From NCBI GenBank assembly GCA_951406725.2, contig OX597815.1, positions 142,228,001-142,292,000 of the forward strand: a stretch of 64,000 nucleotides of DNA, given 5' to 3'. Both the position numbers and the translations under genes were made by a program. Numbering within the stretch: position 1 is the stretch's first letter; every line of letters starts with the position of its first letter. Below are positions 2,000-64,000 of this stretch, one piece after another. Source of the DNA: Octopus vulgaris. Its lineage: Eukaryota. The notes beneath the pieces were generated by a model that was not told where the DNA came from, made no database searches, and was given only the letters and a program-made list of their open reading frames with translations.

Positions 2000-2137
<138 letters not shown>

Positions 2138-2154
2138 AGAAATATTAAAATTAT

Positions 2155-2399
2155 TAAAGCTGTCGCTGATTAGCTCCAAGAGGCCATCGCCTCTAGCTAG
2201 CTATATGACACACGAACTTGCGTCCATTACAACCTTCGAACAGGAGAGGTCAGCTGCTTCACCTTGCTAGTCAGATATCTGCAGACATGTTTCAGGGTTG
2301 TTGCTCTTTATCAATGCAGCGTAGTCAGACCCGCAGGTTCGTGTGTCATATAGCTAGCTAGAGGCGATGGCCTCTCGGAGCTAATCAGCGACAGCTTTA
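2155..2399. repeat. Fold-back element: 68-bp inverted arms around an HHR-containing spacer (probable PLE pseudo-LTR relic)
   Basis: 2155-2222 is the reverse complement of 2332-2399 with 2 mismatches; (TA)n tracts lie on both sides; the left arm and spacer recur at 57003-57210. Confidence 0.9.
2279..2319 (-). ncRNA. Minimal type I hammerhead ribozyme motif, U3:A8 variant
   Basis: Minus-strand RNA CUGCA-UUGAUAA-AGAGCAACAACCCU-GAAA-CAUG-UC-UGCAG: 5-bp helix I, 4-bp helix II with one mismatch, palindromic loop III, GUC triplet. Confidence 0.78.
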
Positions 2400-2662
2400 G
2401 TCTTATATTTATAGACTACCATATTAGTATGGCGATAACTATTAATATATATATATATATATATTAGAAGGTTTGGAGATGATGTACAAGCATTTTATAT
2501 TAGAAGAAATGAGGTACTCAGAAATTCGGAAGGTTTTATATTTACAGATATTTATTTGGATAATACATGTTTTTATACATCATATAACTTATATCATATA
2601 TCAGGTATTAGCACTTTCGTCCATTTTGGTGGATTTTTCAAATATATGTATGTATATATATA

Positions 2663-15699: not shown

Positions 15700-18130
15700 C
15701 ATAATTATACTTAGGGTTTAGCAAAATTGCTTCACCACTTACCACTCAGGTGGTATATCTGGTTTTGATTAAATTCGTCCAGATTCTGTTTAAAGGTAAT
15801 AGGATCCTTTTTCCCCTTTGATCAATTTTGGGTCATTGTTAAACTGGGCAAGGCCTGTTGAAGAAAAGAAATTGTGTTGCAGTGTACCTATATATTTTGA
15901 TCCTGAATTGGGCAGGAGACGTATGGCCCGTGGTCCCAGCCTTGGATGAACCTTGTAGCTAATGTCCTGGTCGTTTGGATAATGATGGCGGTATATTCTA
16001 CACGTCGTGCAAATAATGTAACGCCAAAGACGGGGCTGGAGGTAGTAGAGTTTCAAGTCTTTAAGGTGGTCCCAGTAATCGAGGTATGTCATGACCTTAA
16101 TTCGTTTAATGAATGCCCTCTGGGGTGATTTAATTTTCGAGATGTTTTGTTTTGTAAGGGGAGACAACAGGGGGCAGCAGTATTCGAGATGTGGCCGTAC
16201 AAAGGAGGAGAAAAGTGTTCACTGGACCGGAAGGTTCTTAATATCCAGCAGCTCATCCAACGAGCTATATTGACCTTATTGTTGATGTGGGCACTTTAAC
16301 GGAGATTGTTATCAACAATTATTCTTAGGTCTCTAATATTATTAGATACTGTGAGCGGTTCCCCTGAATGAAGAGAGTAGGGCTGTTTTAGTATAGTATT
16401 TTTTCCAAAGCCCAAAAGCTCAAATTTTCTCTCGTTTAGTTGCATTTTGTTTTTGTCTGTCCATTGACTCACTGAATACATATCAGACCGGAGTTGAGTT
16501 CGGTCTTCTTCATTGATGATTTGCTGGTGCTTAGTGTCATCAGCAAATATTTTCACTTTCGAATGTTTTACGACGTTGGAAAGGTTGTTTATGTAGATTA
16601 TAAAGAGGAGTGGGCCCAAGATAGTCCCCTGAGTGACACCCACTGGTGACTTTTGCTGTACTTGGGTGGACTCTATCGACTACAACATGTTATGTTCTAT
16701 TTACCAGGAAGTAATCTATCCAGTATAAAAGTTTTCACAGATTCCAACATTTGCCAATGGTCAACCCCTTTGAACGCTTTACTGAAATCAAAATATATGA
16801 CATCGTATTTCGAACCTGTTCCCAAGGCTTTCAGCATATACTCAATGTGGTGTAAGAGCTGTGTTAGACAGTCCCTGACACAGCGGAAGCCATGCTGATT
16901 TGCATTTAAGAGTTTGTGAATCTCCAGGAAGCCAGCTATTCTTGATCTGACCACTCTTTCAAACACTTTAGTGATGTGGCAGGTGAGTGAGTTTGGGCGA
17001 TAGTTGACTGCAAGGGATCTGTTTCCCTGTTTGAAAACCGGGCTGACAGACTGGGATAGGAGCTGTTTCGGTATATTAAATGGGTCTAAAGAATTTCTCC
17101 AGAGGGTGGTCAGAGGGACTGCTAGTTGATGTCTACATTCCTTCAGGAGACTAGCTGGGAATCTATCAGGGCCTACGGCAGAATAGTATTTGTCCTCGTT
17201 TATTGCTGCTATGATGTCTGAGGCAGTGAAGGTTATGTCAAAGATTTTATGTTGGGAATCAACTTCGTTCGCTTTTCTTACGCCAATATCAGTGGGATCA
17301 TTAAAGACAGAACAGTACTGTTTCTGCAGTATTTCCGTCATTTCTTTAGCATCGTGTTGGGGAATGCCGTTATCACTGATCAATAGCCCAATGGGTGAAA
17401 CATCGGTTCTATGCTTATCTGCGTAAGAATAGAACACTTTTGGGTTCTGTTTGATTTTTTTTTATTACCCACTGTTCCTCTGCAGCGCTTTCATTTTCAA
17501 TGGAGGTTTTCATGTCGGCCTGCAGACGAAGTTTTTCCAACTCTAGACTTTTCATTGTTGTTGAATGTGGATGTTGTAAAAGGGATTATTTTAATTGGTT
17601 GATTTTTTTATTGAGTCTTTTGATGCGCCTGGAGAGTGTTTTGTTTCTTTCTAGGGAACCGGTTTCTTTTCTGTTAGTGGATTTCCTAGCAGCGTGTTTT
17701 GAGCATGTATAGGTGACACTGTTCTCAAAGTGCTGCCATGCAGTCTCAATGTGAGTGGAACAGAGAGTGGCCGTTTATGTTATCAAATAAGTGCAGTGGA
17801 GTGGGATTGGCTGGTTTGGTTTTGATATGCCAGGAATTAAAATTGCAGAGTATCATTTCGTTGACTGAGAGGAGAATTTATTCCACTGAAATACAGTGAA
17901 CGGAGCTAGAGTGATTGGTTAATATTAGATCCAAGATTGTTTTATTCTGTCTTGGTTCGAGTAGCAGCTGAGTCAGGAAAAAATTATCAATTAGATTAAA
18001 GAGTAATACTGCTGCTGCATTTTCTGATGTAGAGCATTTGCCTAACCTCAGAATAATTGTGGGCCAGTTTATCTGAGAGAGGTTAAAATCACCCATCACT
18101 AGTGTTTCCGGAGTTGTATTTTTGGAGGAA
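15700..18130 (-). mobile_element. Disrupted CR1/L2-group-like LINE (APE C-terminus + RT)
   Basis: ORF pieces GDFN...LDLILTN (endonuclease), NYRP..LT, DFSKAF, GVTQGTILGPLLF, IFADD, HPRLGPRA; several frameshifts; same family as 61780-64000. Confidence 0.93.
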
Positions 18131-22486: not shown

Positions 22487-23594
22487 AAAGTTTGTTTGGT
22501 AAAGCACGTGGGTGAATATATAAGAAAATAGTAAAGAGTGAAAAAACGACAGAAGGCTTAAATGTTAAAAAATATATATATTTGCGTCAAAATGTCTGGA
22601 GAATATTGGAAAAAATTTTTTCCCTCCTTAAAATGACATAATTTTATAATTTTTAAAGAAATACCGGTTTCGCAGTTAGCTCTTCAAATTTCTTGTGACT
22701 TAATGTTTATTTTTAATAACGTAATCCTTGTATTTTTGCTACGGAGAGTTCTAAATAAGGGAAAGTAGTGAGTGATTTCTTCCGGTGTAAGGGAGATAAT
22801 CGCTTAAAAAAATTTTTTTCCTTTAGTGTGAATTTCTCTGTATTATTGAGTTCGGATAGTTGAGTCTGGGTTTGTACTTTCCAATGAAGAATGTTTCCTT
22901 ATTTAGTCTAATTTGTGATGATGATCCGAAAGCACATTGGTAAAATGGAAATATTAAAAATTGTGGTTGTAGTTGCTTTGCGCATTTCTCAATGTGTTCA
23001 CTAAAAGGTATCATTCTATATTCTGGGAATGCAATCTGTTGTCGATGCAGTGTGCATCTACGTCTGAGTGATAGTCCCGTGGACCCCACGTAGTCTTGGT
23101 GGCAGCCCGAGCATTTAATGACATAAATTATGTTTTCAGAGGCACAAGTAAAGTTGGATTTGATCTTGAATTTCTGTCCCTCTTTAAAGAAGAATTCTGA
23201 TCCTTCCAATAGTTTAGGACATGTTGCACAGTTCGATCTACCACATTGTTTTACTTTTGCATCCGTAATTTTAGAAGACAATTTTGCCTTTGTGAGAATC
23301 TTTTTAAGTGATTTAGGCTGTTTGTAGCTTTTAATGATTTGGTGTATGTTTAGAATTTCCTTTAATTTGGGATTTTTATGAAGTATTGGTAAATTCTGGG
23401 TGATGATGGTGAAAGCTTCTTTGTTTCTGGGGTTGTATGTAGATATGTAAGGTAGTATTTTCGGGGAAGGTGTGTTGTTGTGTTGAACTTTTCTTAAAGT
23501 TTCTATGTTGATTTCTGTTGCACGTCTGATCCCATCCTCTATGAGTTGAGTTGGGTAATGTCCTAACCTATTGGAAGGATCAGAATTCTTCTTT
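22484..23594 (-). mobile_element. 5'-truncated Penelope-like element (RT thumb, CxxxxCxxC linker, GIY-YIG endonuclease, 3' pLTR)
   Basis: ORF 22823-23599 contains CGRSNCATC, FTCASENIIYVIKCSGCHQDYVGSTG..LRRR..LHRQQI and ETFFIGKYKPRLN; 3' end abuts (TA)n. Confidence 0.92.
22656..22694 (-). ncRNA. Minimal type I HHR motif in PLE pLTR (U3 variant or degenerate)
   Basis: AAGAAA-U-UUGAAGA-GC-uaacu-GC-GAAA-CCGG-UA-UUUCUU, ~130 nt after the PLE stop codon and on the same strand. Confidence 0.72.
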
Positions 23595-26500
23595 GACAAT
23601 TCTGAAAAGGGAGGATTAACTGGTGTTTAACTAGTGTAATTATGGTTCATTAATATATCGTAAATATTCCCTCTATACATCGTTATTCACTGCCAACATC
23701 ATCTTCATTTAACTCTTGATTTGCTGCTAGTGAAACATGGCCTGTCTTGCTGCTGTTGGTTAGGAACGAATTAATCTTCTCTTGAGGCATTGCTTTAAGC
23801 ATTCCATTAAAGTGTTTATATACCATAGTGTACTCCATCATGTTACATGTATGGATAGGGCACATGTATTATATGGAGAGTCGGTGAGATACTAACTGGT
23901 GCATTGTCTTACATCGAAATAGTTTAGTCCAGCTCAGAGTGATTCCAAGTATATTATATTCCATCTAAAGTGTCACACCATGCATCAGTTCTGTTATTTT
24001 TTTCTGTTATATATATCATTGTTTAGTACAAGTGTACTTTACAGTACACATTATTCTAATATATGATATTGCTTATATTTTCCAATGCTGAGTTCTTCGC
24101 CAGTTTTGTAGGCGTTGCGGTCCTACTGTAGTGAATCCAGATTTGAAACAAATATTGAGTATGGTCAGCGTTAAACTTGCTATTGAAATATTCAGGTGAT
24201 CTTCACAGTAATGTTTCAGACGGAAGTTTCTCGGCTCGAACTAATTGGTCAACAACGTGTATAGGTCTAATCACACCCACTGCCCATATGCATGTACGCA
24301 TGAATATATATTTATATCTAAGCATGTATATGTGGGAGTGTAGATTTTATGACATAGAATATGTAACAATATAATCTAGATTATGTATGCTTTGATAGAG
24401 ATTAAATGCATCATACATTGAAGCATATTGTGACATGCATCAGATGATTTCCGTCTGCTTCAATTTGTTGTTGGGCAAGATTATTATGTATATTTAATGT
24501 TCGTGAATTGCATAGAAAAGAAAAACAACGGGGACATAAATCAATATGGTAACTAATTATAACCTATATAAAAGATCTAACAAAATAGACGAAACAATTA
24601 CGAGATGTCAAGAATAAAAAAAATTGTTGTCGCAATTACGCCATGGTAATACCCGTTAATTGAAAGACATTTTAGTTACAGTCTTGTACTGTATTCATTT
24701 AGATACTGTAGGAGTGCAACCACAAAGAAATACGTATTGTATATTCTGAGATAATTACATGTGTCTTTCTTTGTATCCATACCATGCAAATAGAATAATA
24801 TCGACTAATAACTTCGTTTTACACACCTGTACGCGAGGCGATTGTGGCTGTATCATTATCGTTACTTTCGAAATGTTTTTTCTTATGCCGCATATATTCC
24901 TCTCCTATTGACTAATTGTTCTTGAAATATAGCTGCTACTGCTATACATACAATAATAGAGATATAATACACAGTAATGGAGACTACTTCAACGTAACAA
25001 AATGTTAAATTTTTGCAGCAAAACTTATATTCAACAAATTGCCATTACATGAAATAGATATTGTCATTTATACCATACTTATTGTACATTGCAAAAGACC
25101 ACCGATGTTTTATGGGTTCTACTGACAAGATCTGTAAGTGCACAAGGCTGTTTGTAATCTGTAAAAAATATTCAGGTGGTGATCGCTAATGTTTGGCGTT
25201 ATATACTGCAGGTTCTGTGCAGAAGAGAAAATACTAGTACATTCTTTACTTTCTCGCAATTTCACAGAGACTGATCAACGAAACGACTACTATTAACTGT
25301 TCCTTCTAAAACCTCTTCTCGACAGACTGAATCTGATTCAAATGTTAGCTTGTTTTAGATATGTCAGGTCAGAAGTCTGGTTTGCTAATTGATCCTGGAA
25401 CTTTCAGCTTGGGACTCAAGCTTGATAAGTATCATGTTTTCAAACAAGTTATATGGCAGACATGGCTGAGCGATCAAGAGAGAAGTCTTTCCATACGCTT
25501 GATAACTGTTCAGTTTAAAATTAGAGATAATGCTGTTTTTTAACTCACTGCAACTCCAAGAAAATGCGCAAGCTTTTCCTTTTCCATAAAATTGTTCAGA
25601 ATCCAAACCTGTTCTACTTATCAACCATGAATTTTCTTCGCAACGTTAATGTGAATATAATGGTTGTAATATTGATAGCAATACAAATGCGATGTTATGG
25701 CATCATTATCAGCGCTTAAATGATTAGTTTCTTGCATATGATCATTTGTATTGCCTAGATTTGAAGGTTCTTTTAACTGATGGCATCGGGAATCGGAATT
25801 TACTTACTGTTTTAACACCATGTTTTTGCTACTGTCGACTGCCTGTTACCAAAATATAACGAAATGATAGCTCTGCAAACCAGCCTTCTGTTGCAAACAA
25901 AATTTAAACAGTTTATCACAAAAATGCACTTGAAATATAGATAATAATATATTTTTCTTTCATGGTAGAAGTACCCTTCGCAGGTTGTACCAAGCAATAA
26001 TTTTTGGGCATCGGTCACGTTTGGAAAAATCATTCTCTTGATGTGCAGCAATGAAAGAAAGTTCTTTGGCATATAGTTAGTTGTCTGCAATTAACCAAAA
26101 ACAGGTAATCATCTCAGGTATTGTCGACAATATAGTGTAATTCTGAATAGTGACTATCCAGTCGAGGTGAGAAGCATTCCAAACGATTAAAGTCACTTCA
26201 TCAAGAATTGTACATCACTGACTTAACAGATAATGCAAGATATGTCCTTTCTCAGATAGATAAGAATTTTCTCTTATTGCCCACGGATTCACGGATTCCC
26301 TTTTTCTACACTCATAATCAATTAGCTCAGAGCCCACCACGACCAAAATACTCACCCATGTAATGACAAGATCTTTTTGAACAAATGTTGCTCTGGTCAG
26401 CTGACTCTATAAGTTAATCGATTCCGCTTTCGAATGCGGCGAACAAAATTAGATTATTTCTTACTCATATCGCTCACTGTTATATATAAACTGCAGGGGA

Positions 26501-33680: not shown

Positions 33681-33900
33681 CGTGTTTGTGTGTCTGTGTT
33701 TGTCCCCCCACCCAACATCGCTTGACAACCGATGCTGGTGTGTTTACGTCCCCGTAACTTTAGTGGTTCGGCAAAAAAGAGACCGATAAAATAAGTACTA
33801 GGCTTACAAAGAATAAGTCCTGGGGGCGATTTGATCGACTAAAGGCGGTGCTCCAGCATGGCCACAGTCACATGAGTGAAACACGTAAAAGAGTAAAGAG
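33456..33900 (+). mobile_element. Full-length tRNA-derived SINE with internal (TA)n
   Basis: ggcgtaggagtggctgtgtggtaag...ggttcagtccc...; tail ggcggtgctccagcatggcc...gtaaaagagtaaagag. Confidence 0.85.
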
Positions 33901-33904
33901 TATA

Positions 33905-35431
33905 CAGACAGGCATACACAGGCCCTGACGGCATACACCCACGGGTTATCAAAGCGTTGGCTCCGGTCATCTGCGAGCCCTTAACACGACTATTCAATAT
34001 GTCATTGGCGACGGGTGTTATACCTGCAGACTGGAGAACAGCGATAATCTGCCCAATTTTCAAGACAGGGAGCCGCGAAGACCCGCTTAACTACCGACCG
34101 GTTTCCCTTACATCAATAATCAGCAAGATGTTCGAAACCATCCTTAAGAAAAGTATGATGCTCCACCTCCTAAACACAGCCTCTATCTCTGATTCCCAAC
34201 ACGGCTTGACCAACTTACTAGTAATGGAAGAATTGGTGACGCGCATCCTCGATGATAGTGATGCTGTTGACATCGTTTTATTGGACTTTGCCAAAGCTTT
34301 TGACTCGGTAAACCACCGCCTATTACTTGTCAAGCTTCAAGCATATAGTTTCCATCCAGATATTATACGATGGGTTGGTGCCTTCCTCTCAGATCGCTCC
34401 TTCCAAGTCCAAGTTAATGGTTCGCGGTCCGACGTCTCCAGTGCGAGCAGTGGCGTGCCTCAAGGTTCAGTGCTTGGGCCCTTGTTGTTCTTAGTCTTCA
34501 TAAATGACTTGCCCGACGACCTCACGCAACACACCCTTCTATTTGCCGACGATATCAAACTGGTCGCTCCTCGCGGTAATATAGAGGATCTTCGTTGATG
34601 CCTTCACCACATTTGGAAGTGGTCTAACGATTGGGACCTGTGTCTGAACGTGTCAAAGTGCTGTCATCTGCCTGTCGGCTCTACTCCTGCAACTCAACTT
34701 GATTTCGAGCCGGGTCGTCTGCTGCTGGAGAGGACCGATCAGGTAAAGGACCTGGGGATCTTGGTGGATTCCTCCTTTTCGCCTTCGGCCCAGTGCGTCC
34801 ATGCTGCCAGCAAAGCACGCGGAATTCTGTTCTTGATTCGACGGTCATTCGGAATGCTCACAGCAGCCATATTCCTACCACTCTATGTCACGCTGGTGAG
34901 ACCCATATTGGAGTATGGGATTCAAGCCTCTCCTCCTTATCTCCTCAAAGACATACAGCATCTCGAAAGAGTCCAGAAGCTGGCTACCCGCATGGTTCAT
35001 GGTCTCAAAAATTTGTCCTACGAAGAAAGGCTGAGGACGCTCGACCTTTATTCTCTTGAAAAACGCCGCCGCCGTGGTGATCTCATTCTCGCCCACAACA
35101 TCATAAGCGGAAAGTGTAACCTCTCGAAAGAGCTGTTCTTCACTCCTGCTCCAGAGCGTCGGCTGCGGAGTCATTCCGAAAAGCTCTACCTGCGACGATT
35201 TCATCTCAATCGAAGGAGAGGAGCTTTCTCTGTCCGGGTTGCGGATCCGTGGAACAAGCTGCCAGACGAGATGGTGAAGATGCCGACGACCGCTTTGTTC
35301 AAAGCCTCCCTGGACCTCAAGTGGCCTGAACTCTTTACATGAACACCACCCTGTACTTAACACCATGTCCCCCTACATGGCCTTGCTATTTGCTTTTGAG
35401 CCAAATTAACTAACTAACTAACTAACTAACT
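33905..35431 (+). mobile_element. 5'-truncated CR1-group-like LINE with (TAAC)n tail
   Basis: GPDGIHP, NYRPVSLTS, DFAKAFD, GVPQGSVLGPLLF, LFADD, RPILEY; ORFs 33957-34598 and 34650-35342 share a frame across one TGA; short deletion after QHG; tail (TAAC)n at about 35407-35431. Confidence 0.95.
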
Positions 35432-41262: not shown

Positions 41263-41344
<82 letters not shown>

Positions 41345-43564
41345 GTATACAAAACGATCAAACAATAATAATTAAACAAGCAGATAAAGGTGGTGCAATT
41401 GTTAGTATGGATACCGAATACTATAAGGATTTGGTTGAAGACCAACTGAAGGATACAACCTTCTATTGTGAAATACCCGCAAATATAGACCACCACATCA
41501 TGAAAAAGATCAACAACCTGATCTCAACACACCACAACTCACTTATGGATAATGAAAAATACTACATCACCAATTTCGAACAAAAACCCAGCAACTTCTA
41601 CGGCTTACCAAAAATACACAAATCAAAAAATATTCAACAGACAGTAAAAGAACAAGAAAGTGAGTACATAAAATTATTACATCCAAAAGACCTAAAACTT
41701 AGACCTATTATAGCTGGTCCAGCATGCCCTCCACACCGCCTAAGCAATTTTATTGACATTGTTTTGAAACCACTATGTACTTACATACCAAGTTTCATCA
41801 GGGATGACATCGACTTCCTGTCCCATCTTCCCAAAACAACAGAAACAAATTCAGTTTTACTAAGTTTTGATGTGGTAAGCCTCTACACCAATATTCCACA
41901 CGATTTAGGAATAAAGGCGATTAAATACTGGTTAGTAAAACATAGAGACGTGATTCCCAGCAGATTCACAGTGCCATTTATATTAGACACAGTCAAACTT
42001 ATTCTAGAAAATAACACATTCTTCTTCAATGGAAAGAATTACATCCAAATTAGAGGCACGGCGATGGGAACGAGGTTTGCTCCCGTTTACGCCAACTCTG
42101 TAATGGGATACTTAGAACAACAACCCTACCAAGAGGTGGAGGTAAACTATGGCACTGGATTTAGAAAATATATTGAAAAGGCATGGAAGAGATACCTAGA
42201 CGACTGCTTCATAATCTGGACAGAATCTCTAAATACTCTGAAAGAGTTCAATATCCTCCTGGACAACCTACACCCATCTCTCCAATTTACAAAGGAGATG
42301 AGTAGTACCAAATTACCATTCCTGGATATAATGGTAATTAAAAAAGACACCACCATCACCACAGATATATACTATAAACACACAGACACACATCAATACC
42401 TAAATTTTAAGTCGTGCCATCCACCACATACAAAACGTAACATCCCATACTGCCTAGCCTGAAGAATTTGTACCATTGTAGAAGATGCAAATATCAGGAA
42501 CAAACGCCTAATAGAACTAAGAGAATTTTTGCTCAAACAAAAATACCCATCTCTACTTATAGAAAATGGCATACAGCGGGCTATAAAAATACCCATACAA
42601 CAACTTAGGACAACCCAAGGAAGAGGAAAACAAGAACAAGTCATACCATTCATAGTGACACACAACCCATGTCACCAGAATATCTTCAACATTGCCAAAG
42701 CAAACCTACCAATCATAGCCCAAAGTAATGAATTAAAAGACATAATCACGGATCGAGCTATGGTGCTTAGTAAAAGACAGCCTAAAATCTTGAAAACATT
42801 ACTAACAAAGGCAAAATTTGACCTCAGCAACATTCACGGTATCAAACCAAACATTCACGGTATCTAAATGCAATGATAGCCGATGTGGCACATGCCAATT
42901 CATACATACCGGTCAATATATAAACACAAAAACCGGGAAAATATTCACAAACGCGAATATGAACTGCAAAAGCAGAAATTTAATTTACTGCATCAAATGC
43001 CCAAATTGTGAAGAAATATATGTAGGTCAGACGGGAAACGCACTATTAGAACGCTCACGTGTACACCGGCAACAGATTAGAGACCCAGAGGTCCGTCAGA
43101 TACCTTTGAGTAACCACCTAGCAACATGTGGCCGGAAAATGTATATAATATTTCCGTTCTACAAATTACACAGCCCAAGTGAAATCGAGAGGAGAATCAG
43201 AGAAAAGAATTTTATTGATAAATTCGAACCCAAGCTAAATAAGCAATAATAATAATACTTAGAGGTATTACTTCCACTGCTACGACCATGACCACTAACA
43301 ACAACAACAATACTAAAGGTGATCAAGATGAAGATAGCAGGAAAATTATCTTATTTAGGGTTAAAAGTTCTATTGCCACCACCATCACCACTAGCAACAA
43401 TAATTAAGGTGCTGACAATGATGATGATGACAATTGAAATATAAAAATATAAAAATCCCTGACAAAGGATATTTACAACATTTCTAAAAATAACCCAACA
43501 ATTGCTGCTTCGGCCAGGGTCAATATACAGGACTCTTGACATGTCCAACAAAGCGTGATGCCTA

Positions 43565-43710
43565 AACCAATCAGCTCAACCAACCAATCAGCTTAAGTAA
43601 TTGAGTGATACTACACACTGATTGGTCAGAATACAGTTTGCAAAACCTAGCACTCTGGAGCCTACCCAGCTGTATTTATAGCACAGAATCAATCATCTTG
43701 CTACAGTCAA
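43565..43710 (+). promoter_or_regulatory. Putative pLTR Pol II promoter (three CCAAT boxes and a TATA-like box)
   Basis: aaccaatcagct at 43565 and 43582, ctgattggt at 43618, tatttata at 43673, upstream of the HHR. Confidence 0.5.
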
Positions 43711-43743
43711 AAATTGTGAAGCATGACTGTCAACACTACTACA

Positions 43744-43788
43744 TGAACCCGAAGATTGCAGAATTCAATGCATGAAAGTACTAGTTCA
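43744..43788 (+). ncRNA. Minimal type I HHR motif in PLE pLTR (U4C)
   Basis: UGAAC-CCGAAGA-U-UGCA-gaauucaa-UGCA-U-GAAA-GUAC-UA-GUUCA. Confidence 0.78.
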
Positions 43789-43917
43789 ATCAGAATGAAC
43801 ATTTAACATTCTACTATTTCATTTTATTTTATTCAATTATAATATATTATCTTATAATATATCATTATAAGATTGTAAATAAAATGTGAAAATCAGACAA
43901 GGTTGGAATTCTTTTTA

Positions 43918-43957
<40 letters not shown>

Positions 43958-54745: not shown

Positions 54746-56959
54746 TATATATATCGAATGCGACCCACATTATTAGGCATATCAACCTTCTCTCAATAAA
54801 TGTATAGTCGTTCAAAACCATTATCTTTTCACCAACCGTTGGCAACACCTATCTGCGCACTTTCTGTTAAAATAAATTGGATCAGCGCTGACGAAAACAA
54901 ACGGCGGCCATTATCGTGTAGCGGCAACATTTCTGCTGATCCACATTATTAACAGGTACCCAATTTAAGTGACGTTATAGGGCAGAAACGTGATCTTACC
55001 TGGAATGAGAATTCTACATCGTGACAGATCTTGAAAAAAGGAAAAAACAAACATAGAAATATCCCAAATACTGGGAAAAGAGTTCCGAACAATAATGAAG
55101 TTTGTGCAGTCTCCTATTTCTATCCGATTGAGGATTGTCGAGGGTTGCTTCGTATCGTACATTTTCATGTTACACCAAATATATGCATTAGTATATTTAT
55201 ACTACTGTTTGAAATTCACGACTAAATAATCATAAAATTATTGTATCTTGACAATTTGAATAGAAATATGTCTGTGCTGTGTTTGTGCGAGATATTGTTA
55301 TAATGTTAGCAAGAGGTGTGTTTTCCTTAAAGGCCAGAGATTTCATTCAATATGTTTCGTTAGAATTGATTTTCTATTCATTTTCAGAATCTTTCAGGAA
55401 TTCTTTCTTGCTTATATCTAAATTGATAAATTTAATATTGTTAATATCTAATTGATACTTATTTACATGGTGGTGTTAATAAGATCTTATTTGTGTAAGC
55501 TGTTAAAAAAATTGATTTCTTATTCTTTAGAAATTAATGTGTTAGCATTGTTTCTATGTTTAAGTAGATTACAAAACTAATATTAGATTCCTACCAGTTA
55601 TTTGTTCATTGATTATATCCTTCAAAGAGAAGGTTGTTATTTTTTAAAGTATGAATATAATATAGTTTGCTCAAAATGCATTATGCCTAGTTGTATTGAA
55701 TTCTAAAAATGCGGCATTATCGCCATCTCTTTGAAATATATGGCTCGCTGTTTCGAATTGACCGTACGTGCATATTCTACTTAGTTATTAAAAGTACCGT
55801 AGTGTTTCATACTGCCAGATTTACCTATGATTTTATATGGCTCATAGGTAACAAATCACTTTTGAATTCTGAAATAACTGAAAATATTTGGTACTACAAA
55901 ATTTCCGATTACAATATTTTATAACATTTTTCTTAAGGTAACTGTATTTTATGTTTGTATACAATTATCGTATATAAATGTTGGAAACAGCTTTCATAGG
56001 GAACATAATGTGTTGGGTGATTATATGGAAATTTCAATATATAATTTCGGCAATTTATACTCTGCACCTATTAAATGTGATTGTCGTAATATATTTGTGA
56101 ATATGATACAGTTAAATGATATTGAGGGTATTTATGAAAGTCTAATTTTAAATTGATTTTAACTCTACAATATTTACATGAGAGAATTTACTATGAACGT
56201 ATAAAGTTAGATATTACGTACGAAAAATTACAATATGCGTTTGATTTAAAGTGTTGAAAAGGTTTTCTAATTTTATAGCTGATGGTTCTGACATAAGCAG
56301 AACTAATCTATTACTGCTTTCGAAAATCGCATGGAATTAAATGTCATTTTCTAGAAATTCATCATTTTGCAAGTAAAGGTTTATATTTGAATATTTGCAC
56401 TGTAGCCTTCATTTTTCTTTCCTTTGGTGGCATTATATTTTGGTTGGTCATTGGTCTTGATCACATGTGATATTCGTTTATGCAGCTGTACGTATTTTGA
56501 AGTGCATTTCACTGAATAGGATATGGTAATTATGGCCAGTGTAGTATATATGTGTATGTATGTGTGTTTATGCATATGTGTGTATGTGTAATCATGTGTT
56601 TGCATATGATTGCATGTTTTCTAATATGCCATTTTTATTTGTTAGATGTGCATGAAGAGGAAAATAACCCTTTGAAACTGTCAGGCTGGGTTATAATGAT
56701 GTCACTAATTTTTTATGTGAAATGACGCAAAGTCCGGTTGTAGGAGTAATGATATTTATTCAGGTGTAATGGACTGTTATTAAATGTTTTTTTCAGAAGG
56801 CTAAGGAAGTATCTTGGAGAAAACTTACATCACCCACGCATTTATGTTCCTTGTCTGTATCAATGTATGAGCAAGAATATATACATACATAAACACACAC
56901 ACACATACACACACACATACACACACACCCACGCATATATATATGTATATATAATATTT

Positions 56960-57212
56960 ATTGCCAAACTGACATGGCAGTCCATAGAAATAGGACGAAT
57001 ACTGCTGTTGATTAGCTCCGAGAGGCTATCGCCTCTAGCTAGCTATATGACACACGAACCTGCATCCATAAACCTTCGAACAGGAGAGGTCATCAAATTC
57101 CTCTTGCTGCCCTTGGCAACCACAGACCGATTTCGGAATAGTTGCTTCTTATCAATGTGGAGCAGCCGTGTCTAGCAGGGGTCACTGATCACCTTTCGTC
57201 GAAGGTTTCGTT
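56960..57212 (-). mobile_element. Second member of the 2155-2399 family (probable PLE pLTR fragment), bounded by TA-rich tracts
   Basis: tgattagctcc.agaggc.atcgcctctagctagctatatgacacacgaac.tgc.tccat...aaccttcgaacaggagaggtca shared with 2167-2252. Confidence 0.85.
57120..57160 (-). ncRNA. Minimal type I hammerhead ribozyme motif, U3:A8 variant
   Basis: CCACA-UUGAUAA-GAAGCAACUAUUCC-GAAA-UCGG-UC-UGUGG; same spacing as 2279-2319 with a covarying helix I. Confidence 0.78.
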
Positions 57213-60200
57213 TATATATATATATATATATATATATATGATATATATATATATGTGTATATATATATACAGATAAATAGAAATATATATGTATGCATAT
57301 GCGTATATTCATGCAAATATAAATATATATGCATGTATCTATAAACATATATATACATATATATAAACATACATACATACTCACTCACACATACAAAAAG
57401 CATATATACAAAAGCTTGTATGCTTGTATTTATATGGATACGTCATTTGACACAAGAAAATATTTCAGTGACGACTTCAGCATAATTACATGGAGCCTAT
57501 CATAATTAGCGCAGTGAATTGAACATGTTTTTAATCGAGATATATTCGAAATGAGTAGAAACTCATTATCACTCCGGGTAACTCAAGGGGAACAATCCTG
57601 AAAGTTCACTTCTTAAAATACTGAGAGAATATTGCAGGGGGAAATGACGTTGATCTTTGTGGTATGTATAGTGAGAACGCCACTCATGTTTCGCTTCGTT
57701 TAAAATGAATTCAGAATCCTGTGTTTACTCCCGCACCTTCTTAGATAAGAATGTTAATGAATTTTCTATCCATTACGCTTTAAATTACTCTAATTAAAGT
57801 TAGTATATTAGTCCGCACTTAACCAATATCATTAAGCAATTACCATATTTCTGCGTATGTGTGCTTTTGTGCAACAGGCTACAAATAAACGTGACGGAGA
57901 TTTTTTTTTTCATTCGTTAGCAATCGACGGCTCCAAACCACTCATTTATCATGCACGAAAATCTGAAACTAATCAAATTCTCATTAGTCTCGCTGATGCT
58001 ATGAAAGATTTCCAAATTGCCTTCGATTTTGATTTCAGCAAGGCCTTTCATCGCAGTTAAGTTGATTGAATTTCAGTAATATCGCAGATATAACTATCAA
58101 CGTTTCTCCCGTGTAACCCTGTTTAACTTCAACATATTTTAAAGAAAGCAGGTGTGTATTATGTGGCTGTATCAACCTAACATTCATGTTTAGAGATATT
58201 TTTTTTTTCATTGTACGTTATCTCACTACTTGAAACATAATTGTGCCAGAACGATAACTAATTATTTTACCTCTCTTATCTATTGGAATGAGCCAGCATA
58301 GGATTTTATATATGTGTGTGTTGCATATGTATGTATTATATCAATGAGGCATGGGAGGCAATAATGATTCAGTAAAATACTTCAATCGTACTCATACTTA
58401 CCGACCGATCCTCAGAATATACGTCAACTTCAACCGATCCACAGTTCGAATGTCATATGTCAAGGAGAGTAGTTAAATTATAATTTTTAAAACATTGACT
58501 TTTTAGCTTTATACTTGCCAAATACTCGACCATGCCTGTTAAAGTGTAAACTTGAAATTTTAATGTGTGTGTGTGTCTACCTATCTTCATCTCTTTATGT
58601 CTGTGTGCTCATATGTGCGCGTGTGTCTTTGTATATGTATACGTAAACATCTCTGACATTGGGGTGACGTAGACATTTGCAGGAGAGAGTGTGCTAAAGT
58701 GATACCATTGTATTTTGTTTTTAGTCTTTATAAATAAACCAATTATTTTATTTGAAAACAAGGAATGCCAAATATATTTCTGGAAACCTGGTGCTTACAT
58801 TCCTCCCTCGTCGCCCCACAAAGCAAATTGTCTCGCCGTTAATTTATCTGTCGCATTTTTATTTCTTTCCTTTAAAATGTTATCTATATAATCCAAACAA
58901 GAAACATTTATGCTGTCTTACACTATGCCAAAAACAGGAGTCAATTGCCTTGCATACCTCATGATTTTCTAAGAAAAAAAAACAGAACTATGATGTGGTG
59001 GTCTTAAATCGACTGAAGAAAATTAGTAGGAGTCCACATAAAGGTAAATGTTAGCAAGAAATTGAAATGTTTATGTTCATCGACAACAGAGCAAAACCAA
59101 AAGGCCTGGTTGATAAGATAGTTTGAGGATTTAAAAAAAAATTAACGACTGAGACAAAACACCTCCGCAGCAACAGTGAAGTATTGCTTGACTTAAATAA
59201 AAAATAGGTGAGGACATAAATCCAATAAATTAGCGATGGATGCAATCTGCGAAAATGACAGTCCAAGTGAGTAGTGTTAAACATACACTGGTTTTCTTTC
59301 CTATCTAAGAACCAATGTAAATACTGAAGTAATACTTTTCTATGGCACTTCCCACCTATCTCACTAATATTCAAAACGAACGTACAATTTTTCCTTATTC
59401 TAATTTTTTATTCTAATAATTTCTTTATTATTGGCAGATACTACAAATGCCTTTAATATTGAATGTACTTTTCTAACAAATCTAATTAAGTAAATACTAC
59501 TTTTCATGATGCAATTCCTTTTCCTACCTCTGAAACTAATAGTATTTCCCGAGAGGATTTAATGCTTCAGAGCAACAGTTCATATTCTCAATATCCATAA
59601 GGTACATTATTATAGTTACCGTTAAGGGTGCAGGTGAAAAAATGAAAATAACATGAAATATAAATTCGAATATTCTCAACCAGTCTACCTACTGCAAATA
59701 CGATCGTATTAATCACACAATATTAGTAGCGTATTCTGTTTCATTCTTATGATGTAGAACAAATACTTTTGTAATATTATTTAAAACTAATTCTTGAAAC
59801 TTTTTTTATCAAATAGCCATATGAATAACAGAGATATAATTGCATTGAATCAGTATATGCATGTTTACTATTTTGAATAAAAATGTATTTGTCTAGCTAC
59901 TACGTTAGTAGATTTAAAGAAATAAAAGCAAGATGACATTTCAAAAGTCTCAAGTAAAAAGACGCTTGAATATATTCGATCTGAATATCAAATGCTTCTA
60001 TACAATGATTGTCAAAATTTGATTCCTGATAACAATTTATCACTCCAAATTCTTAATACCTTAAGAGGAATTTCATGTTTGTATATCAAAGATTATGTAC
60101 TGATGAACAGAAGAGTCATAAATACCAAATTCAATTTCTTGGTATCTTTTAAAACACAATATACTAGCTTCGATGCATCGAACAGTAAAATGTTCGAGAT

Positions 60201-61779: not shown

Positions 61780-64000
61780 ATATAACTTAGAATAACTTAG
61801 AAAGGTTTTGGCCAGTATTGGCCCAGGCCATGTCTAACTTAATAGCACCACCTGGTGAAGTCTTTCAGTTCAGGATTTGGGCACCAAGGCCCATTCGAGC
61901 AGAGAGTTATTGTTTGCAGAGACATATCCGGGTGTGGGTGGTTTGTCCGGTACTGTTTGAAGGAATTTGTCCAAAGACTTCTTGAATTTTGTGTGGTCAG
62001 TTTCTTTTTGACGTGCCCTGGTGTAATGTTGAAGAGAGCAGGTCCAATTGAGGTGAAATAGTTGTGCCGTATTGTCGTTATGTGATGCGATTTAGATTTT
62101 TGTTGTGGACGGATGGCACGTGGTCCAAGCCTTGGATGCATTTTGAAGGTGATGCCAACATCATTCGGACAGTGCTGGTGGAATATTTTCCACATCATAC
62201 AGATAATGTAGCGTTCACGGCGTCGTTGGAGTGAATACAATTTCAGCTTCTCTAGTCTACCCCAGTAGTCAAGGTCTGACATGCCATCTATCTTTTTTGT
62301 GATTGACCTTTGGGGAGCTTCAATTCTCATAATATTTTGTTTTGTGTAGGGAGACCACAGTGGACAGCAGTATTCAAGGTGGGGTCGGGCAAAAGTGGAG
62401 AAGAGAAGGATAATAGCGTGGGAATCTCTCAACTGGAAGGTTCTGATGTTACTGTGTTTGATGGTATCAGTAATATCATTTATGTAGATGATGAAGAGAA
62501 GTGGGCCCAACACAGTGCCTTGTGGGACACCACTGCTGACTTTGGCTGGGCTGGATTTGACTCCTTCGACTACAACATGTTGGGTTCTGTTAGACAGGAA
62601 GCACTTGATCCACTGCAGCAACTTTCCAGTGACACCAATATTGGACAGCTTTCTCAGAAGGATCTTATGATCAACCCTGTCAAAGGCCTTGCTGAAATCA
62701 AGGTAGATGACATCAGTGTTGGAACCTTCTCCCAAGGCTCTCAAGATGTCATCAAAATGATGCAGTAGCTGCGTCAGGCAATCTCTCCCATTACGGAATC
62801 CATGCTGGTTGGGGTTCAGCATATTATGACTCTCAAGGAAGTGAGTCATACGCGATCTCAGCACCCTCTCAAATACCTTGATGATATGAGAGGTGAGTGA
62901 GATTGGACGGTAATTCACGGCAAGCGATTTGTTTCCTTTTTTGAAAACTGGGACAACAGACTGGGATAGAGGGTCCTCTGGTATATATCCAGCATCCAGT
63001 GAGTTCCGCCACAGATTGGCTAGAGGGGGTGCAAGTTGGTTTTGACACATCTTCAAGACACAAGCAGGGAACCTATCGGGACCTACTGCTGAATTATGCT
63101 TCATTTCCTTTATTGCTGCTAAGACATCAGGAGCCTCAAATGTTATGTCCGATAAAGTGTATTGGGGAGTAACATCACTGATACAGCCCAGATCAGTCAT
63201 ATCAGGATTGCTGAAAACAGAGCAATATTGTTTCTGCAATATCTCTCCCATGGTTTTGGCATTGTCTTGAAGAGTACCATTTTCATCAATCAGAGGGCCA
63301 ACAGTAGAACCAGTGACTCTGTGTTTTTTTGCAAATGAAAAGAACACTTTGGGATTGAGTTTGATCTTCTCAATGGCCCAGGCCTCTTCAGCTCTTCGCT
63401 GACTATTGATGATAGACATCATGTTGTTTTGGAGTTTATGTTTTTTAATCTCTAGCGACGAGATGGCAGTCAGGTTGGTGTGTTGCTGTTGCCAGTATTT
63501 CAGCATGTTGATCTTTTTGTTGATTCTTTTAATTTTCCTTATGAGAGATTTTCTATTTCTAGGGATTCGACACTTAGATTTGTTTGCAGATATTAATGGG
63601 GTGTGTCTTGCACATATGTTCATGATGGTGTCTACAAGTGACTGCCAGGACTTTTTAATGTTAGTGGGTGTGTATGTGTGCGTGAAGGACCAATCGACTT
63701 GTGCAAGATCATTATTGATCGCTTCCCAGTTTGCATTGTGGAAATCCATAGTGTCAAATGGATGAACAAGAGGGATGACATTTGTTTTGCATTTTGGCCA
63801 GTGAAATCTCAGATCACAGAGAACCATGTCATGGTCGGAGAGTAGGGTTTTCTCCACTGCAATATTGTGGATAGTATCAGTGTGATTGCTGAAAATTAAG
63901 TCTAAGACGTTTTTGTGACATCTCGTTGGTTCGAGTACCAGTTGGGACAAGAAGAAGTCATCCATGAAGTCAAGAAGCGATTCCACTGCCTCCCTGTCAG
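61780..64000 (-). mobile_element. CR1/L2-group-like LINE with an in-frame deletion of the RT catalytic motif; runs off the window end
   Basis: 715-aa ORF: LDLIF..SDH (APE end), NYRPISLTS, DFSKAFD, GVPQGTVLGPLLF, then jumps KHSNIRTF/QLRDSH with no ADD; tail ctaagttat repeated. Confidence 0.95.

Follow-up and report, generated by a model that had tools for sequence, protein, structure and literature searches.

The analyzed window is a 64,000-nt stretch of the Octopus vulgaris genome. A strict scan for type I hammerhead motifs on both strands, with five Watson-Crick pairs required in helix I, returned three matches in these 64 kb: two on the minus strand (2279-2319 and 57120-57160) and an unrelated one on the plus strand (2810-2856). 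The first match (2279..2319) lies in copy 1, a member of the young subfamily A of a repeat family, and has U3 at 2314, A8 at 2309, a palindrome at 2290-2285, a predicted minus-strand cut at 2284/2283, and one broken helix II pair. When unit positions are numbered from the base directly 3′ of the predicted cut, the main arm of copy 1 (2155..2338, minus strand) covers unit positions 307-362 and 1-129, with 94% identity to a tandem unit. Past an internal deletion, it ends in a 3′ tail (2135..2157, minus strand; unit positions 213-235) that terminates beside the second of two 3′-end hot spots of the family (see below). A (TA)n/(CA)n microsatellite follows at 2010..2133, the putative target site. 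A second, inverted and 5′-truncated arm (2332..2448, plus strand; unit positions 62-178) terminates at the first hot spot, is followed by (TA)n at 2449..2465, and forms a 68-nt inverted repeat with 2155-2222. Copy 1 thus consists of two arms joined 5′ to 5′, both of which terminate at (TA)n.

Copy 2 (56952..57221, minus strand) is a single truncated arm of the older subfamily B between (TA)n runs; it covers approximately unit positions 264-360 and 1-172, with 84% identity to a subfamily B tandem unit. Its hammerhead (57120..57160, minus strand) has U3 at 57155, A8 at 57150, and a predicted cut at 57125/57124 and bears private mutations in helix II and in the palindrome. The segments 57070-57079 and 57199-57208 belong to the long stem by which helix I is prolonged. 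Neither window copy is tandem, and each has broken helix II pairs; the predicted helix II pairing probability is at most 0.03 in both compared to 0.97 to 1.0 in two intact copies. An Rfam scan of the window gave no hammerhead family among 106 matches at an E value of ≤1; those matches were rejected as microsatellite-driven miRNA/snoRNA noise. The Rfam miss reflects how poorly the library covers variant cores and decayed copies and is not a defining property of the family.

These motifs agree with the original prediction in their minus-strand position, helix I letters, UUGAUAA, 14-nt spacing, GAAA, and GUC, in the exchange of the first helix II pair (A-U versus G-C), and in both cut coordinates. 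The assignment of the two copies to one family also held, but the shared stretch is not confined to a flank of ~90 bp: homology extends over ~270 nt with 73 to 74% identity. The differing letters CAUG and UCGG were read correctly, but they do not form a loop III; they are the middle of a 6-nt palindrome, and UCGG carries a private C-to-U change of CCGG.

The family is a non-coding repeat with a unit of 352 to 362 nt (mostly 360 to 362 nt), a GC content of 0.39 to 0.42, and one type I hammerhead per unit. Its copies are tandem, permuted, and often inverted. Three ribozymes at 362-nt spacing were found at locus L028 and two at 360-nt spacing at locus L034. Four family loci in an even 1.2-Mb sample of the 2.8-Gb assembly extrapolate, roughly and with a wide error, to ~9,000 fragments. 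Pattern searches detected at least 469 intact subfamily A ribozymes genome-wide. Since the family patterns gave 469 and 1,544 genome matches compared to 0 and 5 for reversed controls, the motif is more abundant than expected by chance. Subfamily A is young (2.3% divergence from its majority sequence), subfamily B is older (11%), and the two majority sequences share 80% identity. Literature searches on cephalopod hammerhead retroelements returned no description of this ~360-nt family. We have placed it as a new family within a known class, the U3-A8 variant itself having been published already (PMC3088659 and PMC4209133).

U3:A8 is the fixed state of the family, whose core carries the Watson-Crick 3:8 pair, the GAAA, and the NUH triplet of a type I hammerhead. 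With positions 3, 7, and 8 left free, 99 of 100 among the matches listed of the 469 were U3:A8, and one was C3:A8; with the looser frame (1,544 matches), the proportion was 86 of 100 among the matches listed. An alignment of 126 distinct variants, obtained after 8 of 150 alignments had been dropped as chimeric, showed U3:A8 in 118 and C3:G8 in none, with the other core positions kept in 114 to 126 of the variants. Many of these variants came from ribozyme-containing queries, but loci retrieved with flank-only queries still had the full core intact with U3:A8 in 39 of 44 rows. Among the rows listed for contigs of four runs with four organism labels, no variant reached 10% at position 3 or 8. 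The same frame gave 42 C3:G8 matches. With the ribozyme masked, no flank homology to the family was detected in the 12 of these that were examined or in 6 other outliers. A C3:G8 ancestor inside the family was accordingly ruled out, the 42 matches being older repeats with no shared flank in those examined. Decay from CUGAUGA, the explanation that the original prediction had argued against, is likewise ruled out, since U3:A8 is fixed across the family, none of the 126 aligned copies is C3:G8, and the core is the same in both subfamilies.

Comparison of the subfamily majorities revealed how the fold has been maintained. None of 12 core positions differs between A and B, and 7 of 18 named hammerhead pairs changed on both sides without a single one being broken, as expected from selection on RNA structure rather than decay. 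The proposed helix I covariation was borne out in a more detailed form: pairing persisted through two separate compensatory changes, between which an intermediate subfamily stands. Helix I passes an internal loop and continues as a long interrupted stem that joins both ends of the unit. When each majority was folded as a circle and its pairs were read in the other majority, the whole-unit folds contained 9 and 10 compensatory pairs, compared to 1.7 to 1.8 expected (0 of 5,000 permutations), and 12 and 7 broken pairs, compared to 24.5 and 19.2 expected. A set of 49 sequences (52 representatives less 3 that were dropped, plus window copy 1 and minus one further row) paired in 87% of the cells versus 31 to 42% in slid controls, with 124 double-change cells versus 55 in shuffles, the cell counts being sequences and not events. 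Counted by pair, double changes in these 49 sequences (13 versus 12.3) were not above shuffles, nor was the pair-type count, and RNAalifold gave no consensus structure on the same alignment. Covariation of helices I and II is supported by the pair tests on the alignment and on the subfamily majorities. Circular folds of five subfamily A units had z scores of −3.8 to −9.0; the antisense strands also folded well (−2.5 to −5.3), and the single subfamily B unit folded weakly (−0.85). Selection on the RNA fold would act on the few master copies; it acted on the master lineages behind the subfamilies and not on the two decaying window copies.

The segment in the place of helix III is a 6-nt palindrome with four forms in the family (ACAUGU, ACUAGU, ACGCGU, and ACCGGU). 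Among self-complementary states, its inner pair was C-G in 21 cases, A-U in 14, U-A in 4, and G-C in 2. The predicted probability of helix III in a monomer was 0, and part of the core mispaired with the palindrome in monomer folds; this mispairing showed no covariation between subfamilies and is not put forward as a switch. Pairing of the palindrome with that of a second copy was predicted at −4.6 to −8.3 kcal/mol. A forced double hammerhead lay 0.4 to 2.3 kcal/mol above the minimum in four of six tandem dimers and 4.9 to 6.2 kcal/mol above it in the other two. Because the palindromic helix III is predicted to be unstable in the monomer and the double hammerhead lies near the minimum in four of six dimers, the folding models mark the palindrome as a sign of a dimer-acting hammerhead and the ribozyme as one of the dimer type. 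The available text of PMC4209133 and PMC6765202 describes a palindrome-based dimer as a known architecture of hammerheads of Penelope-like elements (PLEs) and retrozymes.

The ends of the inserts were mapped in 55 distinct arms obtained from queries lacking the cut site (5 of 60 were removed as duplicate loci). The 3′ ends fell at unit positions 177-178 in 28 arms and 237-238 in 17 (45 of 55 in total), both AT-rich sites, mostly followed by (AT)n; the 5′ ends were scattered. None of the 55 arms had a 3′ end within 10 nt of the cut. Thirty-five arms exceeded one unit in length, 28 had an inverted partner, and 7 could hold two ribozymes. Of 30 testable arms, 27 ran through the cut site, and 3 started just after it, an enrichment too weak to use. 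The genome thus carries little direct trace of cleavage. Such copies cannot be produced from a linear monomer running from cut to cut, and the template should be a circle or an uncleaved multimer. The ends point to internal priming where AT-rich sequence shares microhomology with a nicked (TA)n target. Both fixed 3′ ends lie far from the cut, so the inserts were not primed at the cleaved end; their placement bears on the role of hammerheads in Penelope-type transposition. The family combines partial tandems, inverted 5′-truncated copies, microsatellite targets, and fixed 3′ with ragged 5′ ends, as in non-autonomous Penelope-like elements, with a tandem non-coding unit in the range of 170 to 400 nt, a GC content below 45%, and one type I hammerhead per unit, as in non-LTR retrozymes.

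Taken together, the data make it probable that the two window motifs are decayed single copies of a family with fixed U3:A8, the hammerhead of which likely cleaves itself only as a dimer and the mobility of which likely depends on a PLE reverse transcriptase (RT)/endonuclease acting in trans. Read-through of tandem copies would yield an RNA with two hammerheads, which the long stem of the unit would bring together so that the two palindromes could pair as a shared helix III. Cleavage after GUC would then free the unit, which would circularize. After nicking of (TA)n by a PLE endonuclease, reverse transcription would start from the nick at either of the two internal AT-rich sites; copying would pass the ribozyme and exceed one unit length, and second-strand priming would produce the inverted arm. 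The ~360-nt element was not detected in any run recorded as RNA. In assembled contigs of two runs that we guessed to be RNA, the element was present in 29 of 29 bins and the single-copy control in 2 and 0 of 30; trace DNA from a repeat this abundant (thousands of copies) could produce the same pattern, which is given no weight as evidence of expression.

A search for a partner found intact 781-aa frames with RT and GIY-YIG domains in the genome. In all four copies of this PLE that were retrieved, the 3′ region combines a U3:A8 core and the palindrome of subfamily A; the hammerhead lies near the 3′ end and has a weak, AU-rich helix I. The flanks of the 781-aa PLE were not homologous to the ~360-nt unit. 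Among 54 loci, of which 34 came from GIY-YIG matches, no PLE shared flank homology with the unit; the sampling covered 30 GIY-YIG places, compared to 148 that were scored and 6,136 candidates. The one strong match proved to be an inserted copy. At L007:384-1260, a subfamily A copy sits in the (TA)n tail of a GIY-YIG fragment of a different PLE type, which implies shared targets. The 781-aa PLE family (L332-L335 and L067-L075) is young and also has a Cys-rich linker and an upstream frame of ~470 aa.

Three other explanations were weighed against the proposed dimer-cleaving, PLE-mobilized family. The fold might be kept for recruitment of a PLE enzyme or for RNA stability, the hammerhead cleaving rarely or never and the inserts being copied from uncleaved tandem read-through instead of circles. 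Such a history would account for the 27 of 30 arms that cross the cut site and for the lack of 3′ ends at the cut, and it fits the monomer folds in which the palindrome mispairs with part of the core, as well as the poor in vitro cleavage of published PLE-type hammerheads (available text of PMC4209133). However, a circular template explains the read-through equally well. Rare cleavage also sits poorly with 12 of 12 core positions unchanged at 20% divergence and with a palindrome that survives double substitutions; a stem alone is insufficient, because core and palindrome are needed for the chemistry and for dimer pairing. We therefore regard this explanation as unlikely.

Alternatively, an autonomous PLE that has escaped detection could have the unit as its terminal repeat (pLTR), the copies being 5′ truncated. 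The anatomy of PLE 3′ ends, in which partial tandems and inverted arms occur and the hammerhead precedes (TA)n by 70 to 240 nt, would agree with this, as would the intact PLE family of this genome with the same UUGAUAA core and ACAUGU palindrome. Upstream of the unit, however, the copies continue into a further unit, into an inverted arm, or into DNA without relation to it, and the junctions are seamless over up to 936 nt; no flank homology to PLE 3′ regions was found in the 54 loci, and one permuted unit has two alternative 3′ ends. A terminal repeat is thus quite improbable. Least probable by far is an origin of the compensatory pairs in template switching or hairpin repair during copying instead of RNA selection. 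Fold-back does occur (28 of 55 arms are paired with inverted ones), and both strands fold well, but such events leave unexplained the invariant unpaired core, the switching of a loop-less palindrome among four states, and the G-U intermediates on the ribozyme strand.

The octopus family resembles several known systems in part. With the metazoan non-LTR retrozymes, as far as they are described in PMC7229834 (Cervera and de la Peña, 2020; notably mussel repeats of 350 to 390 bp), it shares a ~360-nt non-coding unit with 39 to 42% GC, one type I hammerhead per unit, tandem plus dispersed copies, and a highly self-paired fold. It differs in its U3:A8 core (C3:G8 in the retrozymes), and in that most copies are short, dispersed inserts that have inverted arms and end at one of two fixed 3′ sites. 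The available text of PMC4209133 (Cervera and de la Peña, 2014) places a U3-A8 variant in the Cercyon elements of Schistosoma mansoni, with ~1,300 PLE-linked matches. The PLE-associated hammerheads described there are similar in U3-A8 covariation, a small palindromic helix III, dimer architecture, opposite-strand pairs 100 to 700 bp apart, and high between-family variation. Unlike them, the octopus hammerhead has a 4-bp helix II directly after A9 without an extra base, A10.1-U11.1 in subfamily A, and a long interrupted helix I, and it lies in a non-coding unit instead of beside an RT frame. Assignment to the minimal PLE hammerhead class of Cervera (2014) was rejected, as the extra base between positions 9 and 10.1 and the long helix II are both absent. 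Natural U3-A8 hammerheads with the same core covariation are reported as active in vitro by Perreault et al. (2011) (PMC3088659); several examples are described there, compared to a family of thousands of copies in which the variant is fixed here.

According to the available part of PMC8557442, partial tandems, inverted truncated copies, and a microsatellite bias are PLE hallmarks. A recent preprint (bioRxiv 10.64898/2026.07.22.740005), in the portion available, derives retrozymes from PLE terminal repeats as non-autonomous PLEs and reports that eight of nine frog retrozyme dimers showed no cleavage. With the non-autonomous PLEs of these two sources (MRC1 type and frog retrozymes), as described there, the octopus family shares partial tandems, an inverted 5′-truncated copy, microsatellite targets, and co-occurring intact PLEs. 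It is unlike them in that the 54 loci gave no sequence connecting it to an autonomous partner.

Further hammerhead-like motifs were observed beside this family. The plus-strand match at 2810-2856, within an element at ~2665-2935, has G3:C8, an extra base after A9, a palindrome AAUAUU, and a UUU triplet; its repeat is short, (TA)n ended, and often inverted, and 5 of 10 viewed copies begin ~20 nt upstream of the ribozyme. This family gave 2,708 genome matches (control, 0), with G3:C8 in 92 of 100 among the matches listed. An A3:U8 motif (L081 and L311-L320) with a 2-bp helix II and palindrome ACCGGU lies in the 3′ region of GIY-YIG-bearing PLEs and gave 668 genome matches, with A3:U8 in 96 of 100 among the matches listed. 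Of the swapped 3:8 pairs, A3:U8 reportedly has the lowest activity in vitro. Full-text literature searches returned no report of a natural fixation of G3:C8 or A3:U8. Lunse and coworkers (2017) reportedly dealt with dimer cleavage of PLE hammerheads and Przybilski and Hammann (2007) with 3:8 exchanges, and either may include G3:C8 or A3:U8 variants. Families of this kind escape searches that require CUGANGA; in the even 1.2-Mb sample, four of four strict matches were noncanonical. We tentatively suggest, as a possibility rather than an expectation, that the genome offers a mutagenesis series of the hammerhead core made by nature, with separate high-copy PLE-linked families fixed for U3:A8 (the ~360-nt family and the intact PLE), G3:C8, and A3:U8, each having a palindromic helix III, that would all be working dimeric ribozymes and with palindromes and helix I sequences specific to subfamilies serving as a self/non-self code. 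Under such a code, only like copies would pair and cut. Young tandem dimers with the four natural palindromes constitute clean test material for the double-hammerhead model.

Other elements of the window include a 5′-truncated, broken PLE between (TA)n runs (41344-43940, plus strand; RVT_1 and GIY-YIG matches) with a decayed hammerhead near 43749 and palindrome AGUACU and another PLE 3′ fragment (~22560-23626, minus strand), the hammerhead of which lies near 22687 and has palindrome ACCGGU and, in this particular copy, U3:G8. Fragments of other non-LTR reverse transcriptases were recognized by eye from translations at 33897-35339 (plus strand), 61842-63998 (minus strand), and 15793-17461 (minus strand). 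Elsewhere in the genome, old decayed hammerheads (L095 and L321-L331; L091-L093, L102, and L103) have canonical C3:G8 or palindrome AUGCAU and unrelated flanks. A canonical CUGAUGA hammerhead-like motif with a nonpalindromic 7-nt segment occurs in identical form in another repeat, at L025:579 and L035:647 (both minus strand). One more U3:A8 motif lies outside the ~360-nt family, at L008:1268 (plus strand); its helix I has 7 bp, and its palindrome is ACCGGU.
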